Below, piece after piece: positions 4,142 to 24,605 of a stretch of DNA of 64,000 nt (position 1 is the stretch's first letter; the number at the start of each line of letters is the position of its first letter). Position numbers and translations under genes: made by a program. This stretch comes from Candidatus Omnitrophota bacterium. GTDB lineage: Bacteria > Omnitrophota > Gorgyraeia > Zapsychrales > Fredricksoniimonadaceae. The notes under the pieces were generated by a model, which was not told the DNA's origin, did not search any database, and saw only the letters and a list, made by a program, of their open reading frames with translations. Location: the NCBI GenBank assembly GCA_903860135.1, contig CAIOPG010000007.1:2100-66099 (forward strand), written 5' to 3'.

Positions 4142-4741
4142 ATGCTTAAGAAAATTTTTGGGTTAATGTTCATTCTTTTTATGGCTTTCCAGCTTTCTGC
4201 TTTTGCCGCGATCAATATTGGGCAGAGAACGGGAACGTTGAAGATCACCATGCCCGATAGCACGGTGCTCATCATTGCGCCCGGCGATCCGCTTCCGGTC
4301 ATTCCTGATGGCGCCACGCTGGAAGTTGTTTCTGGTATTGCCGAAATTTCTACGACCGGAGCGTCCACGGTTCAGGTCGTTGCTGGTGGACAGACCATTA
4401 ATGTCACGCCGGCTTCAACGATCAGCATCAGCTTTGAGGCCACAGGAGCGGTGATCGTTGGTGTGACCGAGGGTTCAGCTAATATCGTAACCGCCAGCGG
4501 CGGGACGGCGCATATTGACGCCGGCGATCAGGTCCGTGTTGGTGCTGGCGTTACGGCAGGTTCAGGGTTTGATGTGATCCGGGGGCAGGTAACAGTAACA
4601 CAACCTGACGGGACAACGACCACACAGGAGCCCACAACGGTTGAAGGGTATACGCCGCCGGAACTCCCTAATACTGATGATGTTGACACGACTGTTCAGA
4701 CTGAAGAAACCGCGGCCGATATCAGCCCTGTGGTTCGATAG
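4142..4741 (+). CDS. Secreted Thr/Gly-rich protein with a FecR-like beta-sandwich region
   Basis: Signal peptide MLKKIFGLMFILFMAFQLSAFA; repeated V.V..G...V....T motifs like the FecR domain; start chosen at the second ATG (4142) after GGAGG. Confidence 0.4.
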   Translation: MLKKIFGLMFILFMAFQLSAFAAINIGQRTGTLKITMPDSTVLIIAPGDPLPVIPDGATLEVVSGIAEISTTGASTVQVVAGGQTINVTPASTISISFEATGAVIVGVTEGSANIVTASGGTAHIDAGDQVRVGAGVTAGSGFDVIRGQVTVTQPDGTTTTQEPTTVEGYTPPELPNTDDVDTTVQTEETAADISPVVR

Positions 4742-4785
4742 TCTTGATGTTGTTTAAAAAGTTCATTTTACAAAAAAGAGAGGGA

Positions 4786-8347: not shown

Positions 8348-9786
8348 TGCTGCCCGTTGTTGACGGGGTTCTTTTCCTGAGCCTTGTGTTGGCTCCCCTG
8401 CTTTACGGTTCGGTGCATTTCCTGGCACTGCTTTTGCTGGCGTTGTTTTCCCTCATTGCATTTAATTTGATATATTTGGCACGGCCATGGTCGCTGGGCA
8501 GGGTCTTTGGCTCGCCATGGGTATGGCTGGGATTATTCCTGACGGGGTTCGCCGGTCTTCAGCTTCTTCCCTTGTCGCCGGACATTATCAAGAAATTCTC
8601 TCCCGCGCTCTATGTTTTTTACGCCCGGTATTGCCCTGATGTTTTGCTTGGTCCTGTGGCATCTTCAGTTTATGCCTCAGACACCGTGCGCGGCATCATC
8701 CAGTTTTTGATGTACGGCCTTTTTTTTATGAGTATCCTAATGCGCCTTCAACCTGATCCTGCGCACGAAGAAAATGTGCATTCAGTCAGCTGGCAGAAGT
8801 CGGAATACTTAAAGCTGGGTTGTTTGACCGGCGTCCTGTCGCTCTTATTCCACAGCATTTACGATTTTAATCTGCACATACCTGCTAACGGCCTTTACTT
8901 TACGGTCCTGCTGGCGCTCGGCGTCGGAGCGGCAGGGCAGGCGTATGACCATGCCTTCTTCAGGCGCATGGTGGAATTTATTATCATCTTCGGTTTTATG
9001 GTCGCGCTTTTTGCCATCGTCCAGAAGTTCAGTTATAACGGCCGTATTTACTGGATCGGCATGAAGAATGGCGGGCATCCCGTTGGCCCTTATTGCAATT
9101 ATGATCATTATGCCGGGTTCATGGAACTTTGCTCTGCCGTTGCGGTGGGTATGGCTGTGGCCGGTGTTTTTCACACATCTTTTTTTCGCCGCAAGGGCTT
9201 TATTGAGAAGGTTGTTTGGTTGGCAACAGCTGAAGCCAACAGGACGCTCCGTTATTTATTCATGGCCGTGGTGATGGCGGCTACCATATTCATGTCAACT
9301 TCGCGCGGGGGGATTATGAGTTTTGTGCTCGGTCAGATCATCTTTTTTGCCACTGTGACGTGGGCTGCAGGCCGGGCGCGCAAAGGCCACCGGCTCGTCG
9401 GGATACTGACTACCGTTGCATTGCTTATCGGCGTCATGGTGATCTGGCTTGGCCCTGAGGCATTTCTTAAACGCTTTCGCCTGACTTCCATAGAGAAGAT
9501 CGTCAAGATGGAAGGATCGGATGCTGACCGTATACGTTTTTATGTCGGCGCAACCCATGTGATCAAGGATTTTCCGGTCACTGGAACGGGGCTTAGCACT
9601 TTTGGTACGAATTTTACCCGTTACCGCTGGTTTGATTTTCGTGGGCGCATGGATTATCTGCGCTACACCCACAATGATTATCTTCAGCTTGTTTCCGAGA
9701 CGGGGGCGGGCGGGATGATCTTTCTTTTTGGGTTCATGATCTTTTATACAGGTGCGTATATCCGTGTGGCGAGGAAGCTCGCATGA
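8347..9786 (+). CDS. O-antigen ligase / Wzy-family polytopic membrane protein
   Basis: About 12 TM helices; large periplasmic loop containing the TSRGGIMSF motif typical of the Wzy_C/O-antigen ligase domain; start overlaps the Wzc stop (TGATG). Confidence 0.6.
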   Translation: MLPVVDGVLFLSLVLAPLLYGSVHFLALLLLALFSLIAFNLIYLARPWSLGRVFGSPWVWLGLFLTGFAGLQLLPLSPDIIKKFSPALYVFYARYCPDVLLGPVASSVYASDTVRGIIQFLMYGLFFMSILMRLQPDPAHEENVHSVSWQKSEYLKLGCLTGVLSLLFHSIYDFNLHIPANGLYFTVLLALGVGAAGQAYDHAFFRRMVEFIIIFGFMVALFAIVQKFSYNGRIYWIGMKNGGHPVGPYCNYDHYAGFMELCSAVAVGMAVAGVFHTSFFRRKGFIEKVVWLATAEANRTLRYLFMAVVMAATIFMSTSRGGIMSFVLGQIIFFATVTWAAGRARKGHRLVGILTTVALLIGVMVIWLGPEAFLKRFRLTSIEKIVKMEGSDADRIRFYVGATHVIKDFPVTGTGLSTFGTNFTRYRWFDFRGRMDYLRYTHNDYLQLVSETGAGGMIFLFGFMIFYTGAYIRVARKLA

Positions 9787-10496
9787 GGACTTTTGTCATG
9801 GGCGATATCCACGGGGCCTACAAGGCGCTCGAGCAGTGCCTGGCGCGCGCGCCCTTTGATCCTGCGCTCGACCGACTGATCGTGCTCGGCGATGTTTGCG
9901 ATGTTTATCCGCAGGTGAACGCCTGCATCGACACATTGCTGTCGTTGAAGCACTGTGATTTTATCATCGGCAACCATGATCTGTGGGCGCTGGACTGGGC
10001 GATGACCGGCCGCAAACCAGCGATGTGGCTTGAGCAGGGCGGGGCAGAAACCATGGCTTCTTATGGCGGCGCGGCGATGCCACAGGCCCATATTGATTTC
10101 CTGAACAGGGGCTTGCCCTGGCTTGAGGTGGCAGGGCGGGTGTTTGTGCATGCCGGCTTTGACCCTGACCGGCCTTTAAAAGAGCAGGGCCTTCGGCGCC
10201 TGGCGTGGGACCGCGCGCTGTTGAGCATCGCCGTGATGCGCCGCGGCACCGGGCCTATAGGCTGTTACAGGGAAATTTTCCTGGGCCATACGCCGACCAT
10301 GCGTTTTGGCAGTACCGTTCCGTTTCAGGCGTGCAATGTATGGGCCATGGACACAGGCGCGGGCTGGTCGGGAAAGCTCTCCATCATGGATGTGGAAAGC
10401 AAAGAATTCTGGCAGTCCGACACGACACCCGGGCTGTATGGTGTGGCTGGCCGTGGCGACGGGCGTCGTCCCGGACCAGGCGAAGGGGCAAATTAA
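9783..10496 (+). CDS. Calcineurin-like metallophosphoesterase (PPP/ApaH-type Ser/Thr/Tyr phosphatase family)
   Basis: GDIHG, GDVCD and GNHD metal-binding motifs in canonical order; ATGA overlap with the upstream gene. Confidence 0.8.
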   Translation: MRTFVMGDIHGAYKALEQCLARAPFDPALDRLIVLGDVCDVYPQVNACIDTLLSLKHCDFIIGNHDLWALDWAMTGRKPAMWLEQGGAETMASYGGAAMPQAHIDFLNRGLPWLEVAGRVFVHAGFDPDRPLKEQGLRRLAWDRALLSIAVMRRGTGPIGCYREIFLGHTPTMRFGSTVPFQACNVWAMDTGAGWSGKLSIMDVESKEFWQSDTTPGLYGVAGRGDGRRPGPGEGAN

Positions 10497-10963: not shown

Positions 10964-12535
10964 ATGAGGAGACCTGACACTATTATTTCTGACACTATTA
11001 TTTCTGACACTATTATTTCTCAAAACTTTAAAAAACAACTTCCCATCAACCTTATCTCCAACGTCGGGTATTTTGCCCTGAACGTGGTGATCGGGATATG
11101 GATGGTGCCGTTTCTGATCCGGCATCTGGGTGTTGAAGGTTACGGGTTCATTCCGTTAGCTTCATCAGTTACGTCTTATGTGAGCTTAATTACTCTTGCG
11201 CTGAATGGCGCTGTGTCTCGATATCTTGTCATAGCATTGCAAAAAAATGATGTCGAAGGGGCGAATAAAATATTTAATACTGCATTCTGGGCACTTGCGT
11301 TTCTTTCAGTTATTTTGGTTCCTTTAGTCGGGGTATTTTCTTGGTTTGTTCCAAGAATATTTCATGTGCCAGTACACCTTGTTTTTCAGGTGCAGGGACT
11401 TTTTTTCATGATATTACTGTCTTTTGTTATTTCTGTTTTCTCTTCGATATTTTATGTTTCGACTTTTGCTAATAATCGTCTTGATTTACGTAATTTGATC
11501 GACATGAGCAGTCTTTCTGTTAGAGCAATACTTATTATTATATCTATTACTTTTGTATCGACAAGTTTGACTAATGTCGGAGTGGCATATTTTTCTGGTG
11601 CATTGATAGCGCTACTCCTTGGGCATGCCTTTTTTAGGAAATTAACACCATCTTTAAAGATTTCACGGAAATTCTTTGATCTCTCGAAGTTGCGGGAGCT
11701 CACGTCTATGGGGGGATGGCTTGTTGTTGGTCAAACGGGCACATTGTTTTTCTTGCAGATTGATCTTATTCTTTGCAATATTTTATTTAGTGCCCATGAT
11801 ACGGGTGTTTACGCGGCGCTTATTCAATGGAATTTCTTGTTAAGAAGTATGGCGGGTGTGGTGGCTGCTGTTTTAGCTCCGGTAGTGACCATAAGTTATG
11901 CATTGAATCAAAAAGAGCGGATTGTTCGAATGTCTCAATGTGCGGTGAAATATATGGGGTTAGGCGTCGCCTTGCCTGTTGGCTTTTTGTTCGGGTTTGC
12001 TGATAGTATTTTACGTGTTTGGTTAGGGCTGGACTTTGTTCAGTATGCTCCTTTATTAAGATTGATGACTTTTTATTTAACGATTAATCTTGCCGTTTTG
12101 CCTTTGTTTGGTCTGAGTGCGGCGTATAATAAAGTTAAGTGGCCTGGGATTGTTACTTTTTTAAGCGGTATTATAAATATCTTTGTAGCGGTTTTCTTGG
12201 CTAAGTTTCTTGGCTGGGGCTTGTACGGCATTGCTTCAGCTGGATTTATTGTTTTAACATTTAAGAATGTGATATTTGCGCCATTATACTTTGCGCATGT
12301 TTTAAACATTTCAAAGCTTTCTTTCTTTAGGCCGCTTATAACGAGTTGCGTGGCAGTTGCTGTTGTTTCTGGGGTGGCTTATACGTTATCGAGATTTGTT
12401 GTATTGGAGAATTTTGGGGCTGTTCTCATGGCAGGATTAGGCATTTCAATTGTTTATCTAATTTTTGTTTGGTTATGTTTGTTTCAAGCAGAAGACCGGA
12501 GCTTGTTTCTGGGATTGTTTAAGAGGGGTGGGTAA
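10964..12535 (+). CDS. Oligosaccharide-unit flippase (Wzx, MOP/polysaccharide biosynthesis protein family)
   Basis: About 12-14 TM helices; Polysacc_synt-like N-terminus INLISNVGYFALNVVIG; start taken at ATG 10964 (the ORF track starts at TTG 10946). Confidence 0.7.
   Translation: MRRPDTIISDTIISDTIISQNFKKQLPINLISNVGYFALNVVIGIWMVPFLIRHLGVEGYGFIPLASSVTSYVSLITLALNGAVSRYLVIALQKNDVEGANKIFNTAFWALAFLSVILVPLVGVFSWFVPRIFHVPVHLVFQVQGLFFMILLSFVISVFSSIFYVSTFANNRLDLRNLIDMSSLSVRAILIIISITFVSTSLTNVGVAYFSGALIALLLGHAFFRKLTPSLKISRKFFDLSKLRELTSMGGWLVVGQTGTLFFLQIDLILCNILFSAHDTGVYAALIQWNFLLRSMAGVVAAVLAPVVTISYALNQKERIVRMSQCAVKYMGLGVALPVGFLFGFADSILRVWLGLDFVQYAPLLRLMTFYLTINLAVLPLFGLSAAYNKVKWPGIVTFLSGIINIFVAVFLAKFLGWGLYGIASAGFIVLTFKNVIFAPLYFAHVLNISKLSFFRPLITSCVAVAVVSGVAYTLSRFVVLENFGAVLMAGLGISIVYLIFVWLCLFQAEDRSLFLGLFKRGG
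10976..11020 (+). repeat. Perfect 3 x 15-bp tandem repeat (gacactattatttct) inside the 5' coding end of the Wzx gene, encoding DTIIS x3
   Basis: Read directly from the sequence: copies at 10976-10990, 10991-11005 and 11006-11020. Confidence 0.95.
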
Positions 12536-13725
12536 TGAATATAGTGAATGCTGTGTGTATTCTTTTCTTGGTGATTCTTTTTCTTTACTCTTTAAAAGAT
12601 TTATTTATAAAAATAATAAGAAAATGGAATTCTTTGCATAGATTTTCTTGGGTGGATAATGATGTGTATTTTAAAAAGGTAAGTTCTGTCGCTCAACGAT
12701 GGCTTTTGGATCCGCCAATGTTGCCGGCGTTTGATGTGGCAGTAGGGATGCCATGGAACTATATTTCTTATCGAAGGGTTTGTGAGGAGGTGCGACGTGG
12801 TTGGCCAATGGGTCTTTTGGCGAAAGGAGTTATGGTCGCTGATATTTATGCTGGTGGGCGTCTCGATGTTTTGGAAAAGTTCTATGCAAGATATTTAACA
12901 AGTGAAGGTCGTTTTCGATTTTCTTTAAAATATGTCGATGATGCTTTGCATGGGGAAGTTCTTTTGTATTTATATAAGAAGACCGGAAATCAAAAATATC
13001 GACAAGCTTCAGATGAGATCTTTTATTGGCTATTGGGGCAGTATAGGCGGTCTAAAACAACATTGCCTTATCGAGATAAGATAAGTGTAAGATTTGTCGA
13101 CACGCTGGGGATGATTATTCCATTTTTGTTTGAATACAATGCGCAGTTTGTGAATAAAGATGCTCAAGAGTTGGCGGTATTGCATATGGAGGATTTTATT
13201 TTATTCGCTGTAGAGAAAAGGTCGGGGTTGCCGTTTCACGGGTATAATGTTGAGTTTTCTAATATGCCAACAGGGCTTTTCTCCTGGGGGCGTGGGGTGG
13301 GGTGGTATGTGTTAGGTCTAGTGGAGGTTTTAACGCAATTAACTTCAAGTAATACGAAGTTCGAGTTCTTTCAGCAATCTTTTATTAAGTTAGCAAATAC
13401 GGTACGCGATTTACAAAAGAAAGATGGAGGTTGGGGTGATATCATTAATATCTCAACGAGCAAATATGATTCTAGTGCGACAGCAATGATTCTTTATGCA
13501 TTCAAGAAGGCAATGATGGCTGGAATTATTGATCCGTCGTATCAAGACATGCTTTCTCAAGGGTTCCATCGGTTGCAGGGGTCTACAACGAAGGCAGGGG
13601 TTGTTTTGGATTCGCAAGGGGTGTGTATGGGGCTTAATAAACATTCCGGAGTATTTTCTTTCACGCCTTATTCTCAAGGGATGGTTCTTGCGGCGACTTC
13701 CGTTATGATTTTTGAATTAGATTAG
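12535..13725 (+). CDS. Glycoside hydrolase family 88/105-like protein (unsaturated glucuronyl/rhamnogalacturonyl hydrolase fold) with an N-terminal membrane anchor
   Basis: VDTLGMIIPF and WGRGVGWYVLGL motifs resemble the DxLGM / WxRGxGW signatures of the GH105/GH88 alpha6/alpha6 barrel; N-terminal hydrophobic helix. Confidence 0.45.
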   Translation: MNIVNAVCILFLVILFLYSLKDLFIKIIRKWNSLHRFSWVDNDVYFKKVSSVAQRWLLDPPMLPAFDVAVGMPWNYISYRRVCEEVRRGWPMGLLAKGVMVADIYAGGRLDVLEKFYARYLTSEGRFRFSLKYVDDALHGEVLLYLYKKTGNQKYRQASDEIFYWLLGQYRRSKTTLPYRDKISVRFVDTLGMIIPFLFEYNAQFVNKDAQELAVLHMEDFILFAVEKRSGLPFHGYNVEFSNMPTGLFSWGRGVGWYVLGLVEVLTQLTSSNTKFEFFQQSFIKLANTVRDLQKKDGGWGDIINISTSKYDSSATAMILYAFKKAMMAGIIDPSYQDMLSQGFHRLQGSTTKAGVVLDSQGVCMGLNKHSGVFSFTPYSQGMVLAATSVMIFELD

Positions 13726-13743
13726 AAAAGGACTTGGTTCCGT

Positions 13744-14955
13744 ATGGTTCAAAAGAACTTGTTTATTCTAGCCGGCAATGGTTCATACGACAATCGCGGT
13801 TGTGAAGCGATTGTAAGGGGAACAACGGAGATCATCAGGCAACACTTTGATGTGCCGGAGTTTCTGTCGATTAGTAATTTTCAGAATGAGGATCAATTTA
13901 AGGCTCAAGTTAAGCATGAATGTGATGGCGCGATAGCACATGCAAGAACGTTTCGTAGTAATAGGCGGTTTTCGCCAGGCTGGTTCTTGTATGCGGCATT
14001 GCGGTTTTCTATGCGGCGTCTTCGTGTTGAGCTTATTTACCGTGAAATGTTGCATGTGCTTAAAGAATCGAGAGCTGTTCTTTCTATTGGAGGGGATAAT
14101 TATTCGTTAGATTATGGCAAGCCATTATTGTATACGACGCTGGATGATTTGGTTTTAAGGCGAAAGAAGCCGATTATTATTTGGGGTGCTTCTGTAGGGC
14201 CGTTTGATGGAATTCCTGGTTATGAAAAGTATATGAGCAAGCATCTTAAAAGAGTGACAGGTATATTTGTACGTGAAACGGCAACTTTAGAGTATCTGGC
14301 ATCAATAGGGGTGAAGGAAAACGTAACGCTTGTCGCGGATCCGGCATTTTTACTCAAGATTGCTCAGCCAGCCATCGTTCCGGATATTAAGGCAGAGTCT
14401 ATTGGTATAAATTTAAGTCCTTTCATGGCCAAATATTTGACCGATGGCGATCTTTCTTGTTGGGTTAAGTTATCTGCACAGATTGTTCGTGAGGTGTCTG
14501 AAGCGACTGGACGTAAGATTTATTTGATCCCGCATGTTACAAGTCCGCATACTAATGATTATACTTTTCTGAAGAATGTGTTGGGTTTATTGGATGATGT
14601 TGATGTTGCTCTGATTGATGATAAGTATAGCGCGGCTGAGATTAAGTGGATTATTAGCAAGATGGCAGTCTTTGCCGGAGCTAGGACGCACGCGACGATC
14701 GCGGCTATTTCCACATGTGTGCCAACGTTGAGTTTTGTTTACAGCATTAAAGCTAGAGGGATTAACCGGGATGTTTTTGGGCATGAAAGATTTTGTATCT
14801 TAAAAAAAGCTTGTCGACCAAAACTTGTAGCTGAAAAAGTGCAAGAAACATTGGCGGAGGCTGATGGAATTCGAGAACAACTTAAATCTATTGTTCCTGA
14901 GTTTCAGAAGAAAGCTTTATCAGCGGGACAGAAATTATTAGAGGTCTGTGTTTAA
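13744..14955 (+). CDS. Polysaccharide pyruvyl transferase family protein (WcaK/CsaB-like)
   Basis: N-terminal ILAGNGSYDNRGCEAIVRGT (the GN.G..N.G motif of PS_pyruv_trans); about 400 aa; typical neighbourhood in EPS loci. Confidence 0.6.
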   Translation: MVQKNLFILAGNGSYDNRGCEAIVRGTTEIIRQHFDVPEFLSISNFQNEDQFKAQVKHECDGAIAHARTFRSNRRFSPGWFLYAALRFSMRRLRVELIYREMLHVLKESRAVLSIGGDNYSLDYGKPLLYTTLDDLVLRRKKPIIIWGASVGPFDGIPGYEKYMSKHLKRVTGIFVRETATLEYLASIGVKENVTLVADPAFLLKIAQPAIVPDIKAESIGINLSPFMAKYLTDGDLSCWVKLSAQIVREVSEATGRKIYLIPHVTSPHTNDYTFLKNVLGLLDDVDVALIDDKYSAAEIKWIISKMAVFAGARTHATIAAISTCVPTLSFVYSIKARGINRDVFGHERFCILKKACRPKLVAEKVQETLAEADGIREQLKSIVPEFQKKALSAGQKLLEVCV

Positions 14956-14956
14956 T

Positions 14957-15895
14957 ATGCCTAAAGTTTCCATTGTTATTCCGTTATACAACAAAGAGAA
15001 ATATATTGCCCGGGCGATTAATTCTATCTTGGCTCAGACGCTATCGGATTGCGAAATTGTTGTAGTTGATGATGGGTCAACGGATAAAAGTGCTGATATT
15101 GTTAGGTCTTTTGACGACTCTCGTATTCATTTGATTCAGCAGGCTAATGCGGGTGTTTCAGTAGCAAGAAATAAGGGGATCAAAGAATCAAAAGCAGAAC
15201 TTGTCGCGTTTTTGGACGCGGATGATGAATGGATGCCTCAGTTCCTCCAAGAGATGGTTGTGTTTATTTCAAAAAAACCTGTAGGGCTTGTTTTATCGAA
15301 CTATTTGAATGGTGCAACAGGGAAGCCGTTCTTCCCAACGGAAAAACGTTGGGAAGGGATTATCCCAGACTATTTTAAACAAGTATTGCGATGGAATAAA
15401 GACATCGCTTTTTCATCTGCCCTCCTTGTGAGGCGGTCGTGTTTTCAGAAGACGGGAATATTCCCTGTGGGTGTCGCTTATGGGGAAGATGTGGATATGT
15501 GGAATCGTATTGCCTGGGTTACGCTGGTGGGATATATTCCTGAGCCATTAGCGATATATCACAACACTACTGAAGGGGCGTGCCATGCTTTTTCTCGTTT
15601 GGGACCACCGTATCCTGTTTTCTTAAAGACATTCAAGTCCTGGAAGAAAGAAAAGTTGATTTCTGCCAGCTTGTTGCGTAGTAGCGAAGAGTATGCGAAT
15701 TGGACGCTTTTATATTACGTTAGACGCCTCATAGGGGCGAAGAGAAAGATCGAAGCTTTTAAAGTTTTTTGTTTCGAATGTTCGTTTTCTTTGGCAACCG
15801 GCCATCTTTATGTAAAAATATTTTGTTTGTTTCTTGTGCCAGATTCGTTATTGTTTTTCTATAGAAAGATTCTAAAATTCTTTTTTAAAAGTTAA
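14957..15895 (+). CDS. Glycosyltransferase family 2
   Basis: VSIVIPLYNKEKYIARAINSILAQT...VVDDGSTD...DADD motifs of GT-A/GT2; start at ATG 14957 just after the upstream stop. Confidence 0.85.
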   Translation: MPKVSIVIPLYNKEKYIARAINSILAQTLSDCEIVVVDDGSTDKSADIVRSFDDSRIHLIQQANAGVSVARNKGIKESKAELVAFLDADDEWMPQFLQEMVVFISKKPVGLVLSNYLNGATGKPFFPTEKRWEGIIPDYFKQVLRWNKDIAFSSALLVRRSCFQKTGIFPVGVAYGEDVDMWNRIAWVTLVGYIPEPLAIYHNTTEGACHAFSRLGPPYPVFLKTFKSWKKEKLISASLLRSSEEYANWTLLYYVRRLIGAKRKIEAFKVFCFECSFSLATGHLYVKIFCLFLVPDSLLFFYRKILKFFFKS

Positions 15896-15921
15896 TAAAG
15901 TTGTTAAGAAAGCGATTGTTA

Positions 15922-16539
15922 ATGAAAAAGAAAAAAATTATTGCTCATTTGATCAGTATGTTCCCGTCGAACTGTGTGCGTGTTATTCTTTATAGATTGA
16001 TCATGAAATATGAAATTTCGGATTCTTATATAGGGTTTGGCACCGTTATAGCTGTTGATAAGGCGATCATTAAGAATAGTTCTGTTGGGAGATCAAATTG
16101 TTTCTATGGCCCGATGAGCGTGATGATCAAAGATGGTTGCTGTATAGGCAATCACAATCAATTTATGTGCGGCAGCTGGGTTGAGGAGCGGTCATTTTCC
16201 GATCAAAAGTATGCTCGCTTGCTAGAGATCAATGAGAAGGTCTTAATAACATCTGATCACTATTTTGATGTTGCTGGAAATATCTCTATTGGTCAAGGGA
16301 CCTGGGTTGCGGGGAGGGGGTCTCAATTTTGGACGCACGGCGTCGGTGTTTCCGATCGTGATATTCATATAGGAGAATCGTGTTATTTGGGAAGTGCGGT
16401 GAGATTTGCCCCAGGCGTTTTGATAGGAAATAAAACTTTGGTCGCACTGGGGAGTGTTGTGACAAAGAAATTCGGTGTTAATAATGTATTATTGGGCGGG
16501 GTGCCAGCAACTATTTTGAAAGAGAATTATATCTGGTAA
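15922..16539 (+). CDS. Hexapeptide-repeat (LbH) acetyltransferase, WcaF/CysE-like sugar O-acetyltransferase
   Basis: Left-handed beta-helix hexapeptide repeats (IGxxxxIGxxxxI) in the C-terminal half; ATG at 15922. Confidence 0.55.
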   Translation: MKKKKIIAHLISMFPSNCVRVILYRLIMKYEISDSYIGFGTVIAVDKAIIKNSSVGRSNCFYGPMSVMIKDGCCIGNHNQFMCGSWVEERSFSDQKYARLLEINEKVLITSDHYFDVAGNISIGQGTWVAGRGSQFWTHGVGVSDRDIHIGESCYLGSAVRFAPGVLIGNKTLVALGSVVTKKFGVNNVLLGGVPATILKENYIW

Positions 16540-16564
16540 GATTTGGAAGGAATTCCGAGGCAAT

Positions 16565-17836
16565 ATGTTATTAAGATTTTCGTTCGACAGGGTTAAATAT
16601 CTTAAGTTCTGTGCTTTTTGCTGGGGGTTGTCACTTGGCTTGCCAAGCACTTCCATCCCTCTTTCTAATATTTTCGGGATTACGTTGGCGCACTTCTTGA
16701 TGTTTGCGACACTAACAGCTGTATTATCAAGATTAAGAAGTTTTCATCTTTTATGTTGGATGGCACTTGTTTCTCCGGCATTAATTTCCACATTGTTCAT
16801 CCCGACTATTGATGCGGGATTAACGCTAAAGTATCTTGGAGATTTGGTTATTGCTACCTTGCCGCTTTTGTTTACAATGGTTTTGGCATTGTCGTTTGGA
16901 TTGGAGATATTGAAAGGTTCAGCTGTTATTATTCTTGTAAATGTTGCATTTGGTTTTTACCAGATGTTATGTGGGGTTTTGGGGCGTACGTTTGATTTGG
17001 GTTTCTTATATAATTATCCACAGTATAACTTTACAGCAAACGGGTTACAAGCAATGTGTGATACGTTCCGGCCTTTCGGGTTGTTCCCGGAGCCTTCGGC
17101 GACGAACGCAGCACTTTCTCCGTGGATATTGTTATTGCTTGCGCTTGGATTTGGGCTCATAAAATTCAAACAGTCCCTTGTTGATGAAGAATGCCTTAGG
17201 ATGTTTAAGGTTGCGGGTCTTTTGGGGGTTCTTTTGGTCTTTTTTTCAAAGTCGGGGCATACGATTTTTCTTTTGTTTGGGTTGTCGGGCATCTTTATTT
17301 TATTAGTGAAGAAATATGTTAGACAAAGGCGATGGAGTCTTTTAACTCTGACATTGGCCGTTATTCCTTTGATTGTTGTCGTTGGACTTTACTTGACATC
17401 CCAAAGAATAGAGTCTCAATTTGATCCTGCAGGTGTTGGGAATAATTCCTGGTCGAAGCGTTTTAATGCGATCATGGATAGTGTTGATATTTGGCTTAAT
17501 TATGGCTTCTTAAGGATATTCTTCGGTTGCGGGGGAGACGCGGCGCGGATCGTTTTTGCAGAGAAGGGAAGTGATGCGATATGGAGCGTATTGATGACAC
17601 ACGTCGTTAATACTGGGATTTGTGGACTCTTATTTATTCTAGGGGTCTTTGTCGCCGGACTTAATGCTATAAAAAGATCCGGGGTTGTTCTTGTTGGATT
17701 TGTTTTCTTCTCGGTGTGGTTGTTAGGCATCACATTTACAACCTGTTATCAATCGTTAACGGCTGTTTGGGCATCTTTAGGCTGGCTTCTTGTATGGGAT
17801 AAGTGTGTGAAAAGATCGGATGAGGTTGCATGTTAA
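16565..17836 (+). CDS. Polytopic membrane protein, putative O-antigen/EPS polymerase (Wzy-like)
   Basis: 10-12 hydrophobic helices with one larger loop; no soluble domain; sits between transferases in the repeat-unit-specific block. Confidence 0.45.
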   Translation: MLLRFSFDRVKYLKFCAFCWGLSLGLPSTSIPLSNIFGITLAHFLMFATLTAVLSRLRSFHLLCWMALVSPALISTLFIPTIDAGLTLKYLGDLVIATLPLLFTMVLALSFGLEILKGSAVIILVNVAFGFYQMLCGVLGRTFDLGFLYNYPQYNFTANGLQAMCDTFRPFGLFPEPSATNAALSPWILLLLALGFGLIKFKQSLVDEECLRMFKVAGLLGVLLVFFSKSGHTIFLLFGLSGIFILLVKKYVRQRRWSLLTLTLAVIPLIVVVGLYLTSQRIESQFDPAGVGNNSWSKRFNAIMDSVDIWLNYGFLRIFFGCGGDAARIVFAEKGSDAIWSVLMTHVVNTGICGLLFILGVFVAGLNAIKRSGVVLVGFVFFSVWLLGITFTTCYQSLTAVWASLGWLLVWDKCVKRSDEVAC

Positions 17837-19029
17837 AGATTTTCATGGTTTCTTTTACAGGGAAGGGCGGGCATCCTGTTTATGTTAATGAAGTTATTGT
17901 TGCGTTGAATAAGAATTGTTCTGCTGACGTTAAGGTGGAGTTTCTTGCTCCGCAAGATTTGGAAAAGAAATATTTTAGAAACGGCTATGTTGTTCATGCG
18001 GACCTCCCTGCATATCCTGTCCGTGGTAAAAAACTTAATGCCCTATGGCGGACCGAGCAGATTGGGCATTTTATAAGATCATATTTAGTTTGTTTCCTAT
18101 GGCTGAGGAAACAGAAGGATTCTTGTGGGGTTCATTTTCAGGATTCTCTTTGGTTATTGGGGATGTTCTTTTGGGTATTTCGTTTCTTGAAGGTGCCTTT
18201 ATTCTTTACAGTTCATAATATTAAACCCCATAAGTATTCGGGTTTGATGCCACATGTGATCGAAGAAAAGTTTTACAAATTTGTTTGGAGATCATGCGAG
18301 GGGCTTTTTGTTCATTCGCAAGGATTGAAGTCTGAGGCCATTCAATTTCTTGGGAACGGACATCCTTCGATCTATGTAGTTCCGCATGGGTTATTCTTGG
18401 TTAACAGCAGTGTGATGACCCCATTATTGATCCGCATGAACAAGAAACGGCTTCTTTTTTTCGGAGCCATAAGAGAAAACAAGGGGCTGCATCTTTTGTT
18501 GGAAGCAATGAAGTCTCTTGATGGATTTGAGTTAACGATCGCTGGCAAGATCGCGGATCATGTTTATTGGAGGGAGACGGTAACGCCTTTACTGGATTCC
18601 TTACGGTTACAAGATAAGAAAGTAACGTTGATAGATGTGTTTATTCCAGACCATGAGGTGGCGGCATTGTTTGATTCCCATAGTGCGGTGATTTTATCGT
18701 ATACGCAGGGCTTTCATTCGCAAAGCGGGGTTTTGCATCTGGCAGTGGCTTTAGACACTCCTGTTGTGGCAACATCAGTAGGGGGAATAGGTGACTTGAT
18801 CGAGAAGTATAAAGTAGGGACTTTGGCAAGATCATGCGATGCCGCACAAGTGAAGGACGCGATCTTGTCTCTCTTTAAAGAAGAGGCTGGTCAACTGCAA
18901 GCGAATTTTAATCTGGCTAAGGAAGATCTTTCCTGGGTTAAATTGGCCGCTGGTACTTGCCATGCGTATAAATTTTCACAGTCATTGAAGAAAAAGAACT
19001 GCGCCCTTGCGGATGGATGTGTTTCATGA
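17830..19029 (+). CDS. Glycosyltransferase family 4 (GT-B, GT1/GT4 retaining type)
   Basis: C-terminal FFGAIRENKGLHLLLEA... and the glycine-rich donor-binding region typical of Glycos_transf_1. Confidence 0.75.
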   Translation: MLKIFMVSFTGKGGHPVYVNEVIVALNKNCSADVKVEFLAPQDLEKKYFRNGYVVHADLPAYPVRGKKLNALWRTEQIGHFIRSYLVCFLWLRKQKDSCGVHFQDSLWLLGMFFWVFRFLKVPLFFTVHNIKPHKYSGLMPHVIEEKFYKFVWRSCEGLFVHSQGLKSEAIQFLGNGHPSIYVVPHGLFLVNSSVMTPLLIRMNKKRLLFFGAIRENKGLHLLLEAMKSLDGFELTIAGKIADHVYWRETVTPLLDSLRLQDKKVTLIDVFIPDHEVAALFDSHSAVILSYTQGFHSQSGVLHLAVALDTPVVATSVGGIGDLIEKYKVGTLARSCDAAQVKDAILSLFKEEAGQLQANFNLAKEDLSWVKLAAGTCHAYKFSQSLKKKNCALADGCVS

Positions 19030-20231
19030 CGATAGTCTATATCACGGCGTTCATCCCTTTTGGCAGGACTGAATCTTTTGTTTTGGAAGAAATCTCCTCA
19101 ATAAAGGGATTGTTCTCCAATATTTTAATTATTCCCCGAAATCCTAGCAAAGAAGTTTTCCATCAAAAGGCCAAAGAGCTTGCCAAGAATGCTTTACGGC
19201 TGCCGTTGTTTAATTTTGAAATAGTGAGGGTGTTCTTTTTTTCGCTGTTGTCATTGGATGTATGGAAAGTTTTGATCAAGATCGTATTTAATTCGCGTAA
19301 TTTCAAAATATGTTTGAAGAATTTATCAATTTTCCCCAAGAGTATCTATTTGTCGCGTATTTTGAAGGAGAAGAATGTCGGCCACATTCATGCGCATTGG
19401 GCGGGTACCACGACTACGATGGCATATATCATTCATTGTTTAACAGGCATTCCGTATAGTTTTACTTCACATCGATGGGATATTTATGAGAACAATATGC
19501 TGAAGGAAAAAGTAAACACAGCCGTTTTCGCGCGGTGCATTTCCATAAAAGGCAAAAATGATGTTATTTCAATAGTTGGGCAAGAGTTTGAAAAGAAGGT
19601 GCAGGTTCTGCATTTGGGTGTTGCGCTGCCCGAACTGATCTTTAATGGCAGCCATTCTAATAAAGATTTTATAGTGATGACGCCGGCTAATCTTTTGCCC
19701 GTTAAAGGGCATCAGTATATGATTGAGGCCTGTGATCTATTAAAAAAAAGAGGGATCAAAGTAAGGTATTGGATTGTCGGCGATGGCGAACTTGAGCCCG
19801 GTTTAAAGAAGCAGGTAATAAATTTGAAATTAGGGGAAGATGTTTTATTTTTGGGTCGTGTTCCACACGAAAAGGTTATGCGGATGTACCAAAATAAAGA
19901 AGTTGATCTGGTCGTTTTGCCAAGTATTAATACGAATGATGCGCAACATGAAGGGATCCCTGTCGCTTTAATGGAGGCGATGGCATATCAAATCCCGGTT
20001 ATTTCGACAGATACAGGTTCGATCCCAGAATTGTTGGTTGATGGCGGCGGGCTTTTGGTGAGTGAGAAAAGCGCGGATGACCTGGCGGATGCTGTGGAAC
20101 GATTATTGAAGGATAAGGATTTGTATAATAATTCGGGCGTTAGCGGGCGAAGAAAGATCGAGAAAGATTTTTCAGAAAATATGATTAGCCGACGTTTGGC
20201 TGAACTGTTTTCTTCAAAAGTGCAGAAGTAA
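19026..20231 (+). CDS. Glycosyltransferase family 4 (GT-B)
   Basis: KGHQYMIEA...GDGELEP...EGIPVALMEAMAYQIPVISTDTGSIPELL (E-x7-E motif region); ATGA overlap with the upstream gene. Confidence 0.85.
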   Translation: MTIVYITAFIPFGRTESFVLEEISSIKGLFSNILIIPRNPSKEVFHQKAKELAKNALRLPLFNFEIVRVFFFSLLSLDVWKVLIKIVFNSRNFKICLKNLSIFPKSIYLSRILKEKNVGHIHAHWAGTTTTMAYIIHCLTGIPYSFTSHRWDIYENNMLKEKVNTAVFARCISIKGKNDVISIVGQEFEKKVQVLHLGVALPELIFNGSHSNKDFIVMTPANLLPVKGHQYMIEACDLLKKRGIKVRYWIVGDGELEPGLKKQVINLKLGEDVLFLGRVPHEKVMRMYQNKEVDLVVLPSINTNDAQHEGIPVALMEAMAYQIPVISTDTGSIPELLVDGGGLLVSEKSADDLADAVERLLKDKDLYNNSGVSGRRKIEKDFSENMISRRLAELFSSKVQK

Positions 20232-20233
20232 AC

Positions 20234-21391
20234 ATGAAATTCTTTACATTTTATTTTAAATATATTTCGGCAGGGCTATTTTTGTTGAACAGTTTGTGTT
20301 TAGCATCTTTTTGTCATGCCGACAGTTGGCGCTTGGGCTTGTCCCATCAGTTGGTTTTAGACGGAAAAGAGTTTTTCCCTATCGGAATGTATGGCGTATA
20401 TTCAGCGGATGGTGTTGAGGCGTTAAAAGAGTTAAAAGCGGCTGGCTTTAACGCGGTTCAGACGTATGTCTATAGCAAAAAGTATTTACAAGATTATTTA
20501 AGGGAAGCTCAGCAGGTTGGTTTAAGGGCATTTATTTATCCAGGAACGAGACTTAGCCGGGATGAGGTCGACCCATTAGGTAAGGTTGCCTCGATGGTAA
20601 AGACTTTAAGTGAGAAGGACGCTGTTTTGGCTTGGCAACTTGCTGATGAGCCGGAATATAATAAAATATTGCCTGAGCAAGTAGAGGAATTGCGAAGACG
20701 TATTCATTTAGGAGATCGGTCAAGGCCAACAGCTTTGGTCATAGCAAAATCGAATAATTATAAAAATTATGCTCCAGTAACGGATATTATGATTGTTGAT
20801 CCTTATCCCGTGTCTAAAGAGCCATTGACTGGGATTTCAGATGCGGTTGAGAAGGCGAGGATTGCTGTTAAAAATAAAAAGCCCGTTTGGGTGGTAGTAC
20901 AGCTTTTTGGCTATCAGAATGAACAGCATAAAGGATATGGAAGAAAGCGAGAGCCTACTATTGAAGAAGTTCGCTGCATGACCTACCTTGCCATTGTGCA
21001 TGGGGCTAAGGGGATCTTTTATTTTGCTTATCATGGCAGTCAGTATGATGTGAGGTTATCGCCCAAGTATTGGGAAGGGGTTAAGGGGATCGCGGGTGAG
21101 TTGAGAGATCTCACACCTGTTTTATTGGCATCAGGAAATGGCAAGAAGATTAATGTACAGGATCAAGGGGGGGGGCAGAAAGCAATACATTCTTTGGTTA
21201 AAAAGCTTGATGGCAAGAAGTATCTTTTTGCGGTGAATACATTAAATGCACCTGTGCATGGTATTATCTTAGGCGTCGAAGGATCTGTTCAGCAAATTGG
21301 CGTAGAGTTTGAAAGTCGCAATGTTGATCGTGTCGATGGCGTTTTTGTGGATAATTTTGCCCCCTATGCCGTACATATTTACAAGATCTGA
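20234..21391 (+). CDS. Secreted TIM-barrel glycoside-hydrolase-like protein (GH5/GH42-like fold, candidate polymer-processing glycanase)
   Basis: Signal peptide; GFNAVQTY and LADEPEY motifs resemble the GH clan-A strand-3/strand-4 acid/base signature (NEP); family assignment uncertain. Confidence 0.4.
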   Translation: MKFFTFYFKYISAGLFLLNSLCLASFCHADSWRLGLSHQLVLDGKEFFPIGMYGVYSADGVEALKELKAAGFNAVQTYVYSKKYLQDYLREAQQVGLRAFIYPGTRLSRDEVDPLGKVASMVKTLSEKDAVLAWQLADEPEYNKILPEQVEELRRRIHLGDRSRPTALVIAKSNNYKNYAPVTDIMIVDPYPVSKEPLTGISDAVEKARIAVKNKKPVWVVVQLFGYQNEQHKGYGRKREPTIEEVRCMTYLAIVHGAKGIFYFAYHGSQYDVRLSPKYWEGVKGIAGELRDLTPVLLASGNGKKINVQDQGGGQKAIHSLVKKLDGKKYLFAVNTLNAPVHGIILGVEGSVQQIGVEFESRNVDRVDGVFVDNFAPYAVHIYKI

Positions 21392-21400
21392 GGATTTAAA

Positions 21401-21526
21401 ATGTCTGAATTTATTTCCGTCATTATTCCCTGCCGCAACGAAGAGAAATTCATCGCCGGATGTCTGGGGAAAAGAGGGGATACGTTGACGATCAGTATGC
21501 GATCAGCCGTATTCTGGCTCAAATGA
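21401..21526 (+). pseudogene. Truncated 5' fragment (41 codons) paralogous to the N-terminus of the GT2 gene at 22169
   Basis: 21408-21470 is about 90% identical at nucleotide level to 22181-22243 (MSEFISVIIPCRNEEKFIAGCL vs FFISVIIPCRNEERFIAKCL); similarity stops abruptly after tgtctgg and the frame terminates after 41 aa. Confidence 0.6.
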
Positions 21527-21597
21527 AGAAGTAGCTTGAAAATAATTATACTACAAATATTTATTATGGTATTGTTGTAGTGTAAATGGAGGCGGAT

Positions 21598-21903
21598 ATG
21601 GATGTTCTAAATGGCGTTCTTATAGAAAGCAAAAAGCACTATGGTGATCTGGCTAAACGGATCGTAAGAGATTTGAAGTCTTTACCATTAGGAAGTGTAA
21701 AAAAGCGCAAGATCTCCGGCGCGATCTATTATTACTTACAGAAGCGCATTGGGAAGAAGGTGGTACATAAATATTTGGGTAAAGAAAACCCGGCAGATTT
21801 GCTTAAACAAATTGCTGAACGGCGGGCACTTAAAGCTGAATTGAAGAAGGTTGAGGAAGGGCTGAAAGTGGTGCGCCGTGCTCAAGGGAGGAAGCGTGCT
21901 TGA
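21598..21903 (+). CDS. Small basic Lys-rich hypothetical protein (possible antitoxin-like partner of a degraded nucleotidyltransferase gene)
   Basis: About 100 aa, pI clearly basic; preceded by a 9/10 inverted repeat (21547-21556 / 21575-21584) and GGAGG; followed immediately by a short truncated ORF; embedded between the GT2 fragment and the intact GT2. Confidence 0.35.
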   Translation: MDVLNGVLIESKKHYGDLAKRIVRDLKSLPLGSVKKRKISGAIYYYLQKRIGKKVVHKYLGKENPADLLKQIAERRALKAELKKVEEGLKVVRRAQGRKRA

Positions 21904-22057
21904 GTTCATTGGGGATATTCTGAAGGTTATTTCAAAGAACGGGCTCTTCGATGAAGGCGTTGAGTTGATCGGGAGTTGGTCTTTTCTTGTTTATCAGAAA
22001 TATCTTGGAGCTAGGTCGTTGCCTTTTGTAACACAGGGTGGCAGTCAGATATTTTAA
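21896..22057 (+). pseudogene. Short truncated ORF (54 codons) overlapping the stop of the preceding small gene; possible remnant of a toxin/nucleotidyltransferase-type partner
   Basis: Starts at GTG and overlaps the upstream stop by 8 nt, ending at TAA 22055-22057; too short for a domain; inference only. Confidence 0.2.
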
Positions 22058-22168
22058 AGGTTTTAATACATGCGGGTAAGGTCCTTCCTCTTTATAGAAA
22101 AGAGATAGAACGGATAGATCTTGCCCTGCAAATTTCAAGATAACTTCTAAGGTATTGATAGGTTTCTT

Positions 22169-23206
22169 ATGAATGACTTTTTTATTTCCGTCATTATCCC
22201 CTGCCGCAATGAAGAAAGATTCATCGCCAAGTGTCTGGATTGTATTTTAGGGCAGAATTATCCGCAGGGGAAGATGGAGATTCTCATTGCTGATGGCGGA
22301 AGCACGGATGATACGAGAAAGATACTGGAGGTCTATGCTCAGAAGTTTCCTCAGGTGCGCTGGTTTGATAATCCGGGCAAGATAGTCCCAACTGGGTTGA
22401 ATATTCTTATTCGTCAGACTAAGGGGAAAATCATTGTTCGCATGGATGCCCACAATGAGTATCCTGAAGATTATATTTCAAAATGTGTTAAGGCACTTAT
22501 TGAACATAAAGCTGATAACGTGGGCGGATTGTGGATCACGCGGCCTAGTGCGAATACATTGACAGCAAAGGCTATTGCGCTGGCTGTTTCTACGGGTTTT
22601 GGTGTTGGCAATGTTTCATACAAGTTGGGAGTTAAGGTGGCAACGGCTGTTGATACGGTCCCATTCGGATGTTTCCGTCGTGATATCTTTGACAAGGTCG
22701 GATTGTTCGATGAAGATATGGTGCGGGCGCAAGATAGCGAATTAAACCACAGGATCATCAAGAGTGGCGGGAAAATAATGTTGATCCCTGATATCTTTTC
22801 TTATTATCACGCAAGAGATAGTTTTTCGAAGCTTTTGAGAATGTATTCTCAGTATGGTTATTTTAAGGTCTTTACAGCGGTGAAGTTGGGAAGTGTTTTT
22901 ACGGTAAGGCAATTGATCCCGGCAATATTTGTTAGTTCGGTCCTGTTGTTAGCGGTGCTTGGTATCGTTCAGCCTGTTTTTTGGTGGTTGTTTGTGGCAG
23001 ATCTTGGGGTCTATGCTGCGGCTAATATCTTGTTCTCAGCAAAATTAGCCATGAAAGAAGATGTAAGGCTTTTTCCGTTCTTGGTTTGGGCTTTTTGTTT
23101 GATCCACGCTTGCTTTGGGTTTAATTATTTACGAGGGGTTGTGGATTTCTGGTTTTTAAAGAAACACTTACATATGAAGATATCCGATCTTCCTTTGACG
23201 CGTTGA
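22169..23206 (+). CDS. Glycosyltransferase family 2 with C-terminal transmembrane extension
   Basis: ISVIIPCRNEERFIAKCLDCILGQ...ADGGSTDDT...RMDAHNEY GT2 motifs; three or four C-terminal hydrophobic helices. Confidence 0.85.
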   Translation: MNDFFISVIIPCRNEERFIAKCLDCILGQNYPQGKMEILIADGGSTDDTRKILEVYAQKFPQVRWFDNPGKIVPTGLNILIRQTKGKIIVRMDAHNEYPEDYISKCVKALIEHKADNVGGLWITRPSANTLTAKAIALAVSTGFGVGNVSYKLGVKVATAVDTVPFGCFRRDIFDKVGLFDEDMVRAQDSELNHRIIKSGGKIMLIPDIFSYYHARDSFSKLLRMYSQYGYFKVFTAVKLGSVFTVRQLIPAIFVSSVLLLAVLGIVQPVFWWLFVADLGVYAAANILFSAKLAMKEDVRLFPFLVWAFCLIHACFGFNYLRGVVDFWFLKKHLHMKISDLPLTR

Positions 23207-23231
23207 TGGCAGGGGCTAAAAGGGGCTTTGT

Positions 23232-24605
23232 ATGATAAAAGAACATAATCGTTTCAGGACAGGAGTTCTTTGCGGTGGAGATATTCTTGTCCTCTTATCG
23301 GCGGCGATATTGGCCTTTTTGACGCGCTTTGGGTTAGAGTGGCATGAGCGGCAGTATTATGCGGTGCCGCTGTTGATCCTTGTGGGGGTGTATTTTTTTT
23401 GTTTTTATGTTTTTAATCTTTACGAACAGCATTTGCGTTATAAAAGCGTTTATTTTCTTTCACGTTTTGTGGTTGCTGTCATTGCAGGATTTGCGATCAT
23501 GGCATTTGTGTCGTATATGGTGCCATTCTTGGAAGTAGGCCGTGGGTTGGCATTGTTAAGTTCGATCTATTTGTTGGTGCTCTTGCCTGTTTGGCGTTTC
23601 ATTTTTGAAGAGGTTTTCTTGTTCAATCTGTTGCGCAAGCGCGTGCTTATTGTCGGAGCAGGGTACGCGGGTCGTTATATTGCGGATGTTGTTAAGAAAG
23701 ATCGTAATTTTGAGCCTGTCGGTTTTATTGATGATGCGGCAGATAAGCATAATATGGTCATAGGGGGGGTCAAAGTGATCGGGGGCTCCGAACTTTTGCC
23801 TGCCATGGCAAGAGATAAAGCTGTGGATATTGTGGTGGTCGCAATCACGAATGAACGCAGCAATGAACTTTTCAACCGTCTTTTTTCTGTCAAAATGGCG
23901 GGCATTACGATCATGGATCTTCCTGCTTTGTATGAGGCGGTTACGGGAAAGATCCCTGTTTCGCATTTGCGCATAGGGTGGCTTGTGTTTTCTTCATTCA
24001 ATGCCATAAGCCGGCATCGTTTCGCCGAGTTGAAAAGATATTTTGATCTGTCTTTGGCGTTGGTTTTGCTTATTGTGACCACCCCGCTTATGTTGCTTCT
24101 GATGATCCTTATCAAGTTGGATTCCAGGGGGCCGGTTTTTTATAGACAAAAGAGGGTCGGGAAGAACGGCAAAGAATTTGTGATGTATAAATTCAGGTCC
24201 ATGGTCGTTGACGCAGAAAAGAAAGAGGGCGGCTTGTATACTTTGACCCGAGATGCGCGTGTGACGCGCCTGGGGGGAATATTGCGCAAAATCCGTTTTG
24301 ATGAACTGCCGCAACTTTGGAATATTTTTATCGGGGACATGAGCCTTGTCGGACCCAGGCCTGAGGCGGTGGAACTTTCAGAGAAATATCAGAAGATCAT
24401 TCCGCATTATATCATGCGCCATGTGGTACGTCCGGGTCTCAGTGGATGGGCGCAGGTGCGATATTCTTACAGCGCTTCAACTGAGGACGCACTGGAAAAG
24501 TTTAAATATGATATGTATTACCTGAAAAACATGTCTTTCACTCTCGATGTTCAGGTTATATTGAAGACCATTAGTGTTATTGTTTTTCGAGATGGTTCCC
24601 GTTGA
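23232..24605 (+). CDS. Polyprenyl-phosphate sugar-1-phosphate transferase (WbaP/CpsE-type priming enzyme for the undecaprenyl-phosphate lipid carrier, large PGT with Rossmann-like middle domain)
   Basis: N-terminal 4-5 TM helices; central VLIVGAGYAGR nucleotide-binding-like domain; C-terminal Bac_transf signature DLSLALVLLI...LIKLDSRGPVFYRQKRVGKNGKEFVMYKFRSM...DELPQLWNIFIGDMSLVGPRPE. Confidence 0.9.
   Translation: MIKEHNRFRTGVLCGGDILVLLSAAILAFLTRFGLEWHERQYYAVPLLILVGVYFFCFYVFNLYEQHLRYKSVYFLSRFVVAVIAGFAIMAFVSYMVPFLEVGRGLALLSSIYLLVLLPVWRFIFEEVFLFNLLRKRVLIVGAGYAGRYIADVVKKDRNFEPVGFIDDAADKHNMVIGGVKVIGGSELLPAMARDKAVDIVVVAITNERSNELFNRLFSVKMAGITIMDLPALYEAVTGKIPVSHLRIGWLVFSSFNAISRHRFAELKRYFDLSLALVLLIVTTPLMLLLMILIKLDSRGPVFYRQKRVGKNGKEFVMYKFRSMVVDAEKKEGGLYTLTRDARVTRLGGILRKIRFDELPQLWNIFIGDMSLVGPRPEAVELSEKYQKIIPHYIMRHVVRPGLSGWAQVRYSYSASTEDALEKFKYDMYYLKNMSFTLDVQVILKTISVIVFRDGSR

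Follow-up and report, generated by a model that had tools for sequence, protein, structure and literature searches.

The window analysed here is a 64,000-nucleotide (nt) stretch from a metagenome-assembled genome of a Candidatus Omnitrophota bacterium, and its positions 21,401 to 22,168 lie immediately upstream of an intact GT2 glycosyltransferase gene. We find the region to be a recombination scar, real but ordinary, within a surface-polysaccharide cluster. It probably marks the junction between the variable part of the cluster and a conserved 3′ module, which consists of the GT2 gene and a priming sugar-phosphate transferase gene, and it would hold three relics: the cut 5′ end of another GT2 gene, a short orphan segment, and a toxin-antitoxin (TA)-like cassette of two genes in which the enzyme is dead. 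A scar of insertion or recombination, placed in an AT-rich variable block, had been suggested in an initial annotation of the same DNA; the present analysis supports a scar, lying where the variable part of the glycan locus ends.

The structure is real and no assembly artefact, since four independently assembled contigs (L001–L004, obtained from other samples with different assemblers) match the window at 100% identity along their whole length. Jointly they span 21392–23008, which takes in the GT2 stub, the cassette, the deletion junction in its enzyme gene and the start of the intact GT2 gene. An assembly or binning chimera might be suspected, as the DNA comes from a metagenome-assembled genome and assemblers can be misled by repeats. 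With four contigs in full agreement over the stub, the junctions and the start of GT2, and with the same gene order around the same small protein in 12 contigs, such a chimera is hardly credible.

A two-gene cassette with a broken enzyme gene

The first gene of the cassette, at 21598–21903, is intact and lies on the forward strand, as do all genes of the window described here; it encodes a basic 101-amino-acid (aa) protein resembling DUF6788, which we regard as a putative antitoxin or regulator. It is preceded by a Shine-Dalgarno sequence (GGAGG, 21588–21592) and has 63 homologues at 50–100% identity, mostly from Omnitrophota. The ratio of nonsynonymous to synonymous substitution rates (dN/dS) against its relatives is 0.07–0.12. 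An AlphaFold2 model (pLDDT 93) shows a helix, a three-stranded sheet and a second helix; compared with the PDB, this model had no significant neighbour.

The second open reading frame (ORF), at 21896–22057, starts with GTG, overlaps the small gene by 8 nt and runs for 53 codons, of which 47 encode homologous N-terminal residues of a PF12281 nucleotidyltransferase (NTP_transf_8, GSU2403 family) and the last 6 before the stop are out of frame. Its product matches the profile at E 2.6e-4 and 21.4 bits (cutoff 26.3), over profile positions 3–38 only, and is 93.6% identical to residues 1–47 of the intact 232-aa protein of a related locus, L005. In L005–L008, a 101-aa homologue of the small protein is followed, with the same 8-nt overlap, by an intact PF12281 gene, which in L008 lies at 1024–1722; the encoded enzymes are 226–232 aa long and match the profile at E 1e-24 to 1e-28 (87–99 bits). 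Judged by these alignments, the homology of the window ORF to PF12281 is secure and the window copy is a fragment. Both the palindrome-preceded gene for a small basic protein and the overlapping truncated ORF had been recognised in the initial annotation, and both hold up.

We located the lesion by blastn against L005 and L008, which are about 81–84% identical to the window in DNA sequence. Two collinear blocks, 21543–22040 and 22036–22132, overlap by 5 nt, and the junction at 22036–22040, read by eye, carries 3–5 nt of microhomology. About 439 nt, encoding residues 48–193, are missing and the frame is shifted. The deletion begins exactly at a conserved DVDFLIPNP motif, and the window keeps ...ELIGSWSFLVYQKYLGARSLPFVTQ before it; this acidic motif, which follows a G-S motif, is putatively catalytic. 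Without a complete nucleotidyltransferase core, the window's enzyme gene is a pseudogene. Its C-terminal remnant persists in another frame at 22039–22143 (34 codons; WQSDILKVLIHAGKVLPLYRKEIERIDLALQISR, then a stop) and is 81% identical to residues 194–225 of the L005 enzyme. The dN/dS of this remnant is 0.14–0.20, and the two remnants together range over 0.03–0.20 against intact relatives. Because these values resemble those of the small gene and no further lesion is present, the deletion is recent.

The small gene is preceded by a palindrome at 21545–21586, which we read as a promoter-operator; its arms (21546–21556 and 21575–21585) are complementary at 10 of 11 positions. An equivalent structure, TTACACTACA-N19-TGTAGTGTAA, lies upstream of every small gene, with arms that are invariant across about 28 loci and a variable spacer that usually holds an extended −10 element, TGnTATAAT; the right arm abuts the Shine-Dalgarno sequence. 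The window's right arm, TGTAGTGTAAA, is perfect, and the start of transcription is predicted to fall within it. Its left arm, ATTATACTACA, has two mismatches to the consensus TTTACACTACA, and its spacer reads TGgTATTGT. In most loci a second copy of the palindrome occurs at +963/+992, so that the cassette is bracketed at both ends; in L019, for example, palindromes stand at −51/−22 and +963/+992 relative to the ATG of the small gene. The left arm of the 3′ copy forms the last codons of the enzyme gene (I/L-T-L-Q), and deletion of the enzyme gene has left the 3′ copy in place (L022, L024 and L033). Homology between loci ends at the palindromes. The 3′ palindrome may serve as a second operator, as a site for looping or as a border of the cassette.

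In the window, cassette comparison reveals only a degenerate left arm of the 3′ palindrome (TGCCCTGCAAA, 22122–22132), and the right arm is absent; the window cassette therefore ends inside the 3′ palindrome. Homology to other cassettes stops at about 22132–22135, 33 nt short of the GT2 start codon. An inverted repeat of 10 nt, TAGCTTGAAA at 21532–21541 and TTTCAAGATA at 22133–22142 (9/10 complementary), lies exactly at the outer cassette borders; none was seen in the other loci, and it may be due to chance.

Other origins of the palindrome were considered and set aside. Integron attC sites are imperfect palindromes with RYYYAAC...GTTRRRY core sites, found only at the 3′ end of a cassette; the arms TTACACTACA and TGTAGTGTAA lack the attC core, and the palindrome here stands at both ends, the 5′ copy with a promoter-like spacer. 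Xer/dif-type sites were ruled out on sequence and spacing. Solitary TTACACTACA-N-TGTAGTGTAA structures also turned up in seven IMG/VR viral contigs (L039–L045), five of which share the cassette's 29-nt arm offset. We detected no cassette genes near the palindrome in these contigs, their contexts are unrelated, and we judged the viral copies to be chance or unrelated hairpins rather than a free-standing element.

To place the cassette among its relatives, we used a profile of the small protein to scan species-representative genomes and found 26 loci; L008 and L009 bring the total outside the window to 28. Every one of these has an intact small gene. The enzyme gene is intact in 19 loci, runs off a contig end in one, and is deleted, frameshifted, internally deleted or replaced by another nucleotidyltransferase family in eight (L009, L021, L022, L023, L024, L025, L033 and L035); the enzyme has been lost and the small gene kept in 8 of 27 informative loci. 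The flanks of the cassette vary: it sits in TA islands in L006 and L007, and a different copy lies in another glycosyltransferase cluster in L008. On this comparative evidence, we describe the cassette as a small, mobile, accessory two-gene unit found in unrelated contexts. Two adjacent, co-oriented small genes in one operon, with an accessory or mobile distribution, are also what is generally expected of a TA system.

Intact copies of this DUF6788-like plus PF12281 module, at 81% DNA identity, come from the Omnitrophota metagenome-assembled genomes GCA_015232565.1 and JGI 3300077326. They share with the window the order of the genes, the 8-nt overlap and the upstream palindrome. The window copy differs from them in the loss of residues 48–193 with its frameshift, in the reduction of the 3′ palindrome to a degenerate left arm, and in its weakened 5′ left arm and −10 element. 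The module is catalogued and functionally uncharacterised. Our survey provides a first outline of it: the palindromes come in pairs, the two proteins occur both split and fused, and the enzyme gene is often lost. This outline has wider value, and the module could be cheaply tested for TA or defence activity.

Several features of individual loci deserve mention. Three close relatives carry a metallophosphoesterase gene behind the cassette (L005:2051-2743, L006:7010-7633 and L016, approximately 5017–5706); it starts 14–24 nt past the 3′ right arm and its product resembles ApaH/PrpA-like phosphatases (NCBIfam E ~1e-16). By its position, it may belong to the unit as a third member in the L005/L006/L016 clade. 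In L025, the small gene is followed at 4373–4915 by a gene for a 180-aa protein of the NTP_transf_5, AbiEii-like and DUF2204 families instead of PF12281, an arrangement that looks like a partner swap. The small genes of L023, L025 and L033, where the enzyme has been lost or replaced, deviate at positions near-invariant elsewhere (for example H57 to Q and YYY to YHY), which may reflect relaxed or altered constraint in a sample too small to judge.

The GT2 stub and the orphan segment

The region opens with a 41-codon ORF at 21401–21526 (stop codon 21524–21526), which we treat as a pseudogene remnant and not as a conserved gene. Its start codon and about 22 codons (21401–21467) are the 5′ stub of a gene of the same ~345-aa GT2 family as the intact gene at 22169; the other 19 codons are unrelated. 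The evidence consists of a peptide match and a 58-nt direct repeat, 21410–21467 versus 22181–22238, with 51 of 58 identical positions (88%) and copies 771 nt apart. The 48-nt core of this repeat scored E = 5e-13 in blastn-short against the whole window and is the segment's one significant self-match. The initial annotation had described a repeat of about 90% over 41 codons. The repeat itself is real, but it covers about 22 codons; nor does the fragment break off where the similarity ends, as had been stated, since the similarity (codons 4–22) stops at 21467 and the ORF runs on for 19 more codons.

The stub peptide, FISVIIPCRNEEKFIAGCL, is identical to the homologue P0070 at 19 of 19 residues and close to all 120 homologues listed. 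It fits the N-terminal motif of the GT2 subfamily, [FV]S[VI]IIPCRNEE.FI..CL, which is almost invariant in the intact gene's ~345-aa family (6276 matches, with members ending in ...DLPLTR). From the neighbouring GT2 peptide it differs at two residues (K for R and G for K), both of which are found in functional relatives. The GT2 family match stops at codon 23, and the stub lacks the full-length catalytic and membrane domains.

Two explanations of the stub have to be weighed. Insertion of the cassette into one single GT2 gene could have duplicated the first ~70 nt of that gene; the stub would then be a degenerate copy of the gene beside it, the view taken in the initial annotation. The two 58-nt copies do flank the cassette in direct orientation, and both are preceded by a start codon. 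(The sequence upstream of the stub start is GAGGATTTAAA.) A duplication of this kind would nevertheless have had to accumulate seven differences in 58 nt, a change of codons 2 and 3 (TCT GAA TTT follows the ATG in the stub, AAT GAC TTT in the intact gene) and a one-codon indel, with the extra codon in the intact gene, while the nucleotidyltransferase remnants meanwhile underwent no neutral decay. The K and G of the stub are the residues of P0070, which is not expected from drift in a dead copy. The same 58-nt stretch is 47/58 identical between the stub and L011, a locus from another species, and 48/58 between the neighbouring GT2 gene and L011, and this between-species range of 81–83% is nearly as high as the value within the window. 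Whole GT2 genes from the window and L011 are just 74% identical, and the stub matches the L011 GT2 5′ end at 85.7% over 49 nt. The 88% identity therefore reflects the most conserved stretch of the family and is no proof of copying from the adjacent gene. Finally, the 77 nt at 21468–21544 belong neither to GT2 nor to the cassette. We consider a target duplication quite unlikely. The stub is best read, from these comparisons, as the remnant of a different GT2 allele or paralogue; a swapped GT2 allele, which the initial annotation had offered as its alternative, fits better than a duplicate does.

The stub starts 10 nt after the stop codon of its upstream neighbour, a 385-aa gene at 20234–21391, and this gap is that of a normal operon junction. 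Orthologous loci lacking the insertion, which the initial annotation had named as a useful comparison, were found in L011, L012 and an ERZ1426597 contig; all three show variable genes followed by GT2 and the priming transferase (Bac_transf), with no cassette.

Between the stub and the cassette lies the orphan segment of about 77 nt (21468–21544), for which our searches found no match. Translated in another frame than the stub, it reads ...GEKRGYVDDQYAISRILAQMKK and then a TAG stop at 21532–21534, and it looks like the 3′ end of a lost gene, here called gene X; the peptide GYVDDQYAISRILAQMKK also belongs to this segment. By an alignment of the upstream regions of cassettes, the segment does not belong to the cassette in the other loci. 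A protein database search with the stub and orphan-segment peptides joined returned a sole match, the product of the 41-codon ORF itself, and tblastn of the orphan-segment peptide against the window and all fetched related loci gave none. We rejected the idea that a single GT2 gene supplied both the stub, as its start, and the orphan segment, as its end: the putative C-terminus of the segment is ...AQMKK, and all family members end in ...DLPLTR.

A toxin-antitoxin-like unit or a split enzyme

A TA-like unit is the most likely reading of the cassette, given its accessory distribution, its location in TA islands, its operator-like palindrome and the repeated loss of its enzyme gene. This agrees with the initial annotation in so far as a decayed TA-like pair had been proposed: the two ORFs would be the remnant of a two-gene TA-like cassette whose enzyme gene has lost about 439 nt. 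The family assignment made there, an AbiEii-type toxin with an AbiEi- or DUF6088-like partner, is not supported. The truncated ORF matches PF12281, its partner is DUF6788-like, and Pfam, NCBIfam and PADLOC scans of the two genes and of intact relatives gave no match to AbiEii (PF08843), AbiEi, DUF6088 or the PADLOC AbiE models. An AbiEii gene is indeed present at the start of the window (25–978; PF08843 E 1.5e-15, PADLOC AbiEii E 2.6e-69), as had been noted; it is a separate system, about 20 kb from the cassette and unrelated to it, and its AbiEi partner would lie outside the window.

The arrangement of the cassette nevertheless recalls the AbiE (AbiEi/AbiEii) type IV TA and abortive-infection systems and the related MenAT systems (PMC3985639; PMC7319586). 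Like these, it is bicistronic, with an upstream regulator-like gene and a downstream gene of nucleotidyltransferase fold; it shares with AbiE the inverted repeats in the promoter, as in AbiEi autoregulation, and a patchy accessory distribution. The cassette differs from AbiE in its upstream protein, which is 101 aa long and modelled as helix-sheet-helix in place of a two-domain winged-helix antitoxin, in the second palindrome at the 3′ end of the operon, and in the existence of natural single-chain fusions.

These fusions came from a profile search with the small protein against 1.84 billion representatives, which yielded 1116 relatives, most of them about 100 aa long. In four proteins of 332–340 aa, the small-protein domain (residues 1–94) is fused before PF12281 (approximately 104–297), and in one further protein it precedes an HNH nuclease; P0204, P0214, P0227, P0259 and P0258 are examples of the fusions. 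Since such fusions exist, the pair is the split form of a two-domain protein. It could accordingly be a split two-domain enzyme with a nucleic-acid-binding N-terminal domain and a nucleotidyltransferase, having no TA function, and the small gene of the window would be a relic that has not yet decayed. Related plasmid proteins point in the same direction: 413 plasmids, mostly rhizobial, encode a 'GSU2403 family nucleotidyltransferase fold protein', and the five copies examined (L046–L050, all from Rhizobiaceae) are 352–362 aa long and carry, before PF12281, an N-terminal domain of about 104 aa whose profile match to the small protein is weak and collinear (E 0.0011, probability 20%). As the deletion in the window is recent, retention of the small gene there need not mean selection. 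What argues against a split enzyme is that the small gene is still whole in eight species-level loci where the enzyme gene has been lost, broken or replaced, that the small gene has its own conserved palindromic promoter region, and that cassettes are found in TA islands. Fused toxin-antitoxin proteins are known, and fusion is therefore compatible with a TA function as well. We regard the split enzyme as possible, if doubtful.

A TA-like function has to be held against several observations that weaken it. The literature searched contains no mention of PF12281 or DUF6788, and searches of both proteins against PADLOC, NCBIfam and the PDB gave no informative match and no solved homologue. The small protein reaches only 13.5 bits against the local DUF6788 model (PF20586.3, gathering cutoff 27.2) and two of its relatives do not match at all; precomputed PF20586.4 annotations list DUF6788 for 62 of the 63 homologues. 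Its occurrence as the N-terminal domain of single-chain PF12281 proteins is not predicted by a simple labile-antitoxin model. Our survey was seeded with the small protein and is biased accordingly, with loci carrying the enzyme alone invisible to it. With regard to the scar as a whole, the 77-nt orphan segment had no match, and no donor or ancestral haplotype was found.

A more far-reaching version of the TA-like reading is that the unit represents an undescribed nucleotidyltransferase family of TA or abortive-infection systems, that the 101-aa helix-sheet-helix protein binds the two bracketing palindromes as an operator pair, looping sites or borders of a mobile cassette, and that the orphan has been kept in this genome as a regulator encoded just ahead of the GT2 and transferase genes. 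If true, a domesticated antitoxin would now influence surface-glycan expression; we think this version unlikely.

Proposed history and locus setting

The analysis shows how the sequences are related, that the deletion is there, that the palindromes are conserved and that the enzyme gene has decayed repeatedly in other genomes. Toxicity, neutralisation, DNA binding and the order of events are inferred, and we consider the history proposed here for the scar fairly likely. A GT2 allele or paralogue would once have followed directly after the 385-aa gene and would have been cut at codon 23 by an illegitimate join, either through a deletion within a composite locus or through a replacement with one homologous and one illegitimate end. 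The join would have connected the cut GT2 gene to the 3′ end (about 77 nt) of gene X, which preceded the cassette and a second GT2-transferase module. The cassette itself is a mobile unit made up of the palindromic promoter-operator, the gene for the 101-aa protein and the PF12281 gene, and would have acted like modules of the AbiE/MenAT type, with the small protein repressing its own promoter via the palindrome and counteracting the enzyme. In this genome, the internal deletion of about 439 nt removed the nucleotidyltransferase core and shifted the frame, which killed the enzyme and left the small gene, its ribosome-binding site and most of the operator intact. On this view of the cassette, the remaining small protein would be an orphan antitoxin or regulator that is probably still made, from an operon reading through to the GT2 and transferase genes.

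Comparable processes have been described elsewhere. Homology-facilitated illegitimate recombination is a known mechanism of replacement (PMC3240628), and arrays of orphan immunity genes arise in Vibrio cholerae by sequential displacement of effectors (PMC5361080). The window resembles a displacement scar in having a short 5′ remnant of a homologue beside an intact allele, where a variable block meets a conserved module, and it resembles an orphan immunity gene in that the protective partner would have been kept after the harmful one was lost. It differs in that no donor, recipient or alternative haplotype was found, and the mechanism here is read from the scar alone. The 385-aa upstream protein, scanned against genome contigs and metagenome contigs, had no relative; a degenerate DNA pattern for the stub peptide gave no match in metagenome contigs; and exact-protein look-ups of the 385-aa gene, the GT2 gene and the priming transferase returned only the same arrangement.

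Downstream of the scar, the intact GT2 gene (22169–23206) encodes 345 aa (PF00535 E 1.5e-28; full-length homologues at 77% identity and 100% coverage) and is followed by the priming sugar-phosphate transferase gene (23232–24605; PF02397 E 5.9e-67). Both are unaffected by the scar, which has little consequence for the genome; both the stub and the broken enzyme gene call for annotation as pseudogenes. In the region 21401–22168 we found no known RNA families, tRNA/tmRNA integration sites or terminators, and no terminator lies between the upstream genes and the GT2 and priming transferase genes.

In Omnitrophota glycan loci, re-joining and the lodging of accessory cassettes seem to take place at the border immediately upstream of the GT2-transferase module. 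The borders of this module collect scars and TA cassettes in more than one lineage. In L012, a 204-aa fragment upstream of the module (5256–5870) corresponds to the C-terminal half of the window's 404-aa GT1 at 50% identity, and an AbiEi/AbiEii-like pair lies just downstream of the priming transferase (8647–10309).

The genes of the window form a one-strand run, within which the polysaccharide cluster at about 11000–24600 stands out by its low GC content (0.37–0.44). No tRNA genes were found in the 64-kb window. All long gene-like ORFs between 1 and 64000 lie on the forward strand, the GC skew is above 0 in nearly all 1-kb bins, and the cumulative skew climbs steadily to 12.3.

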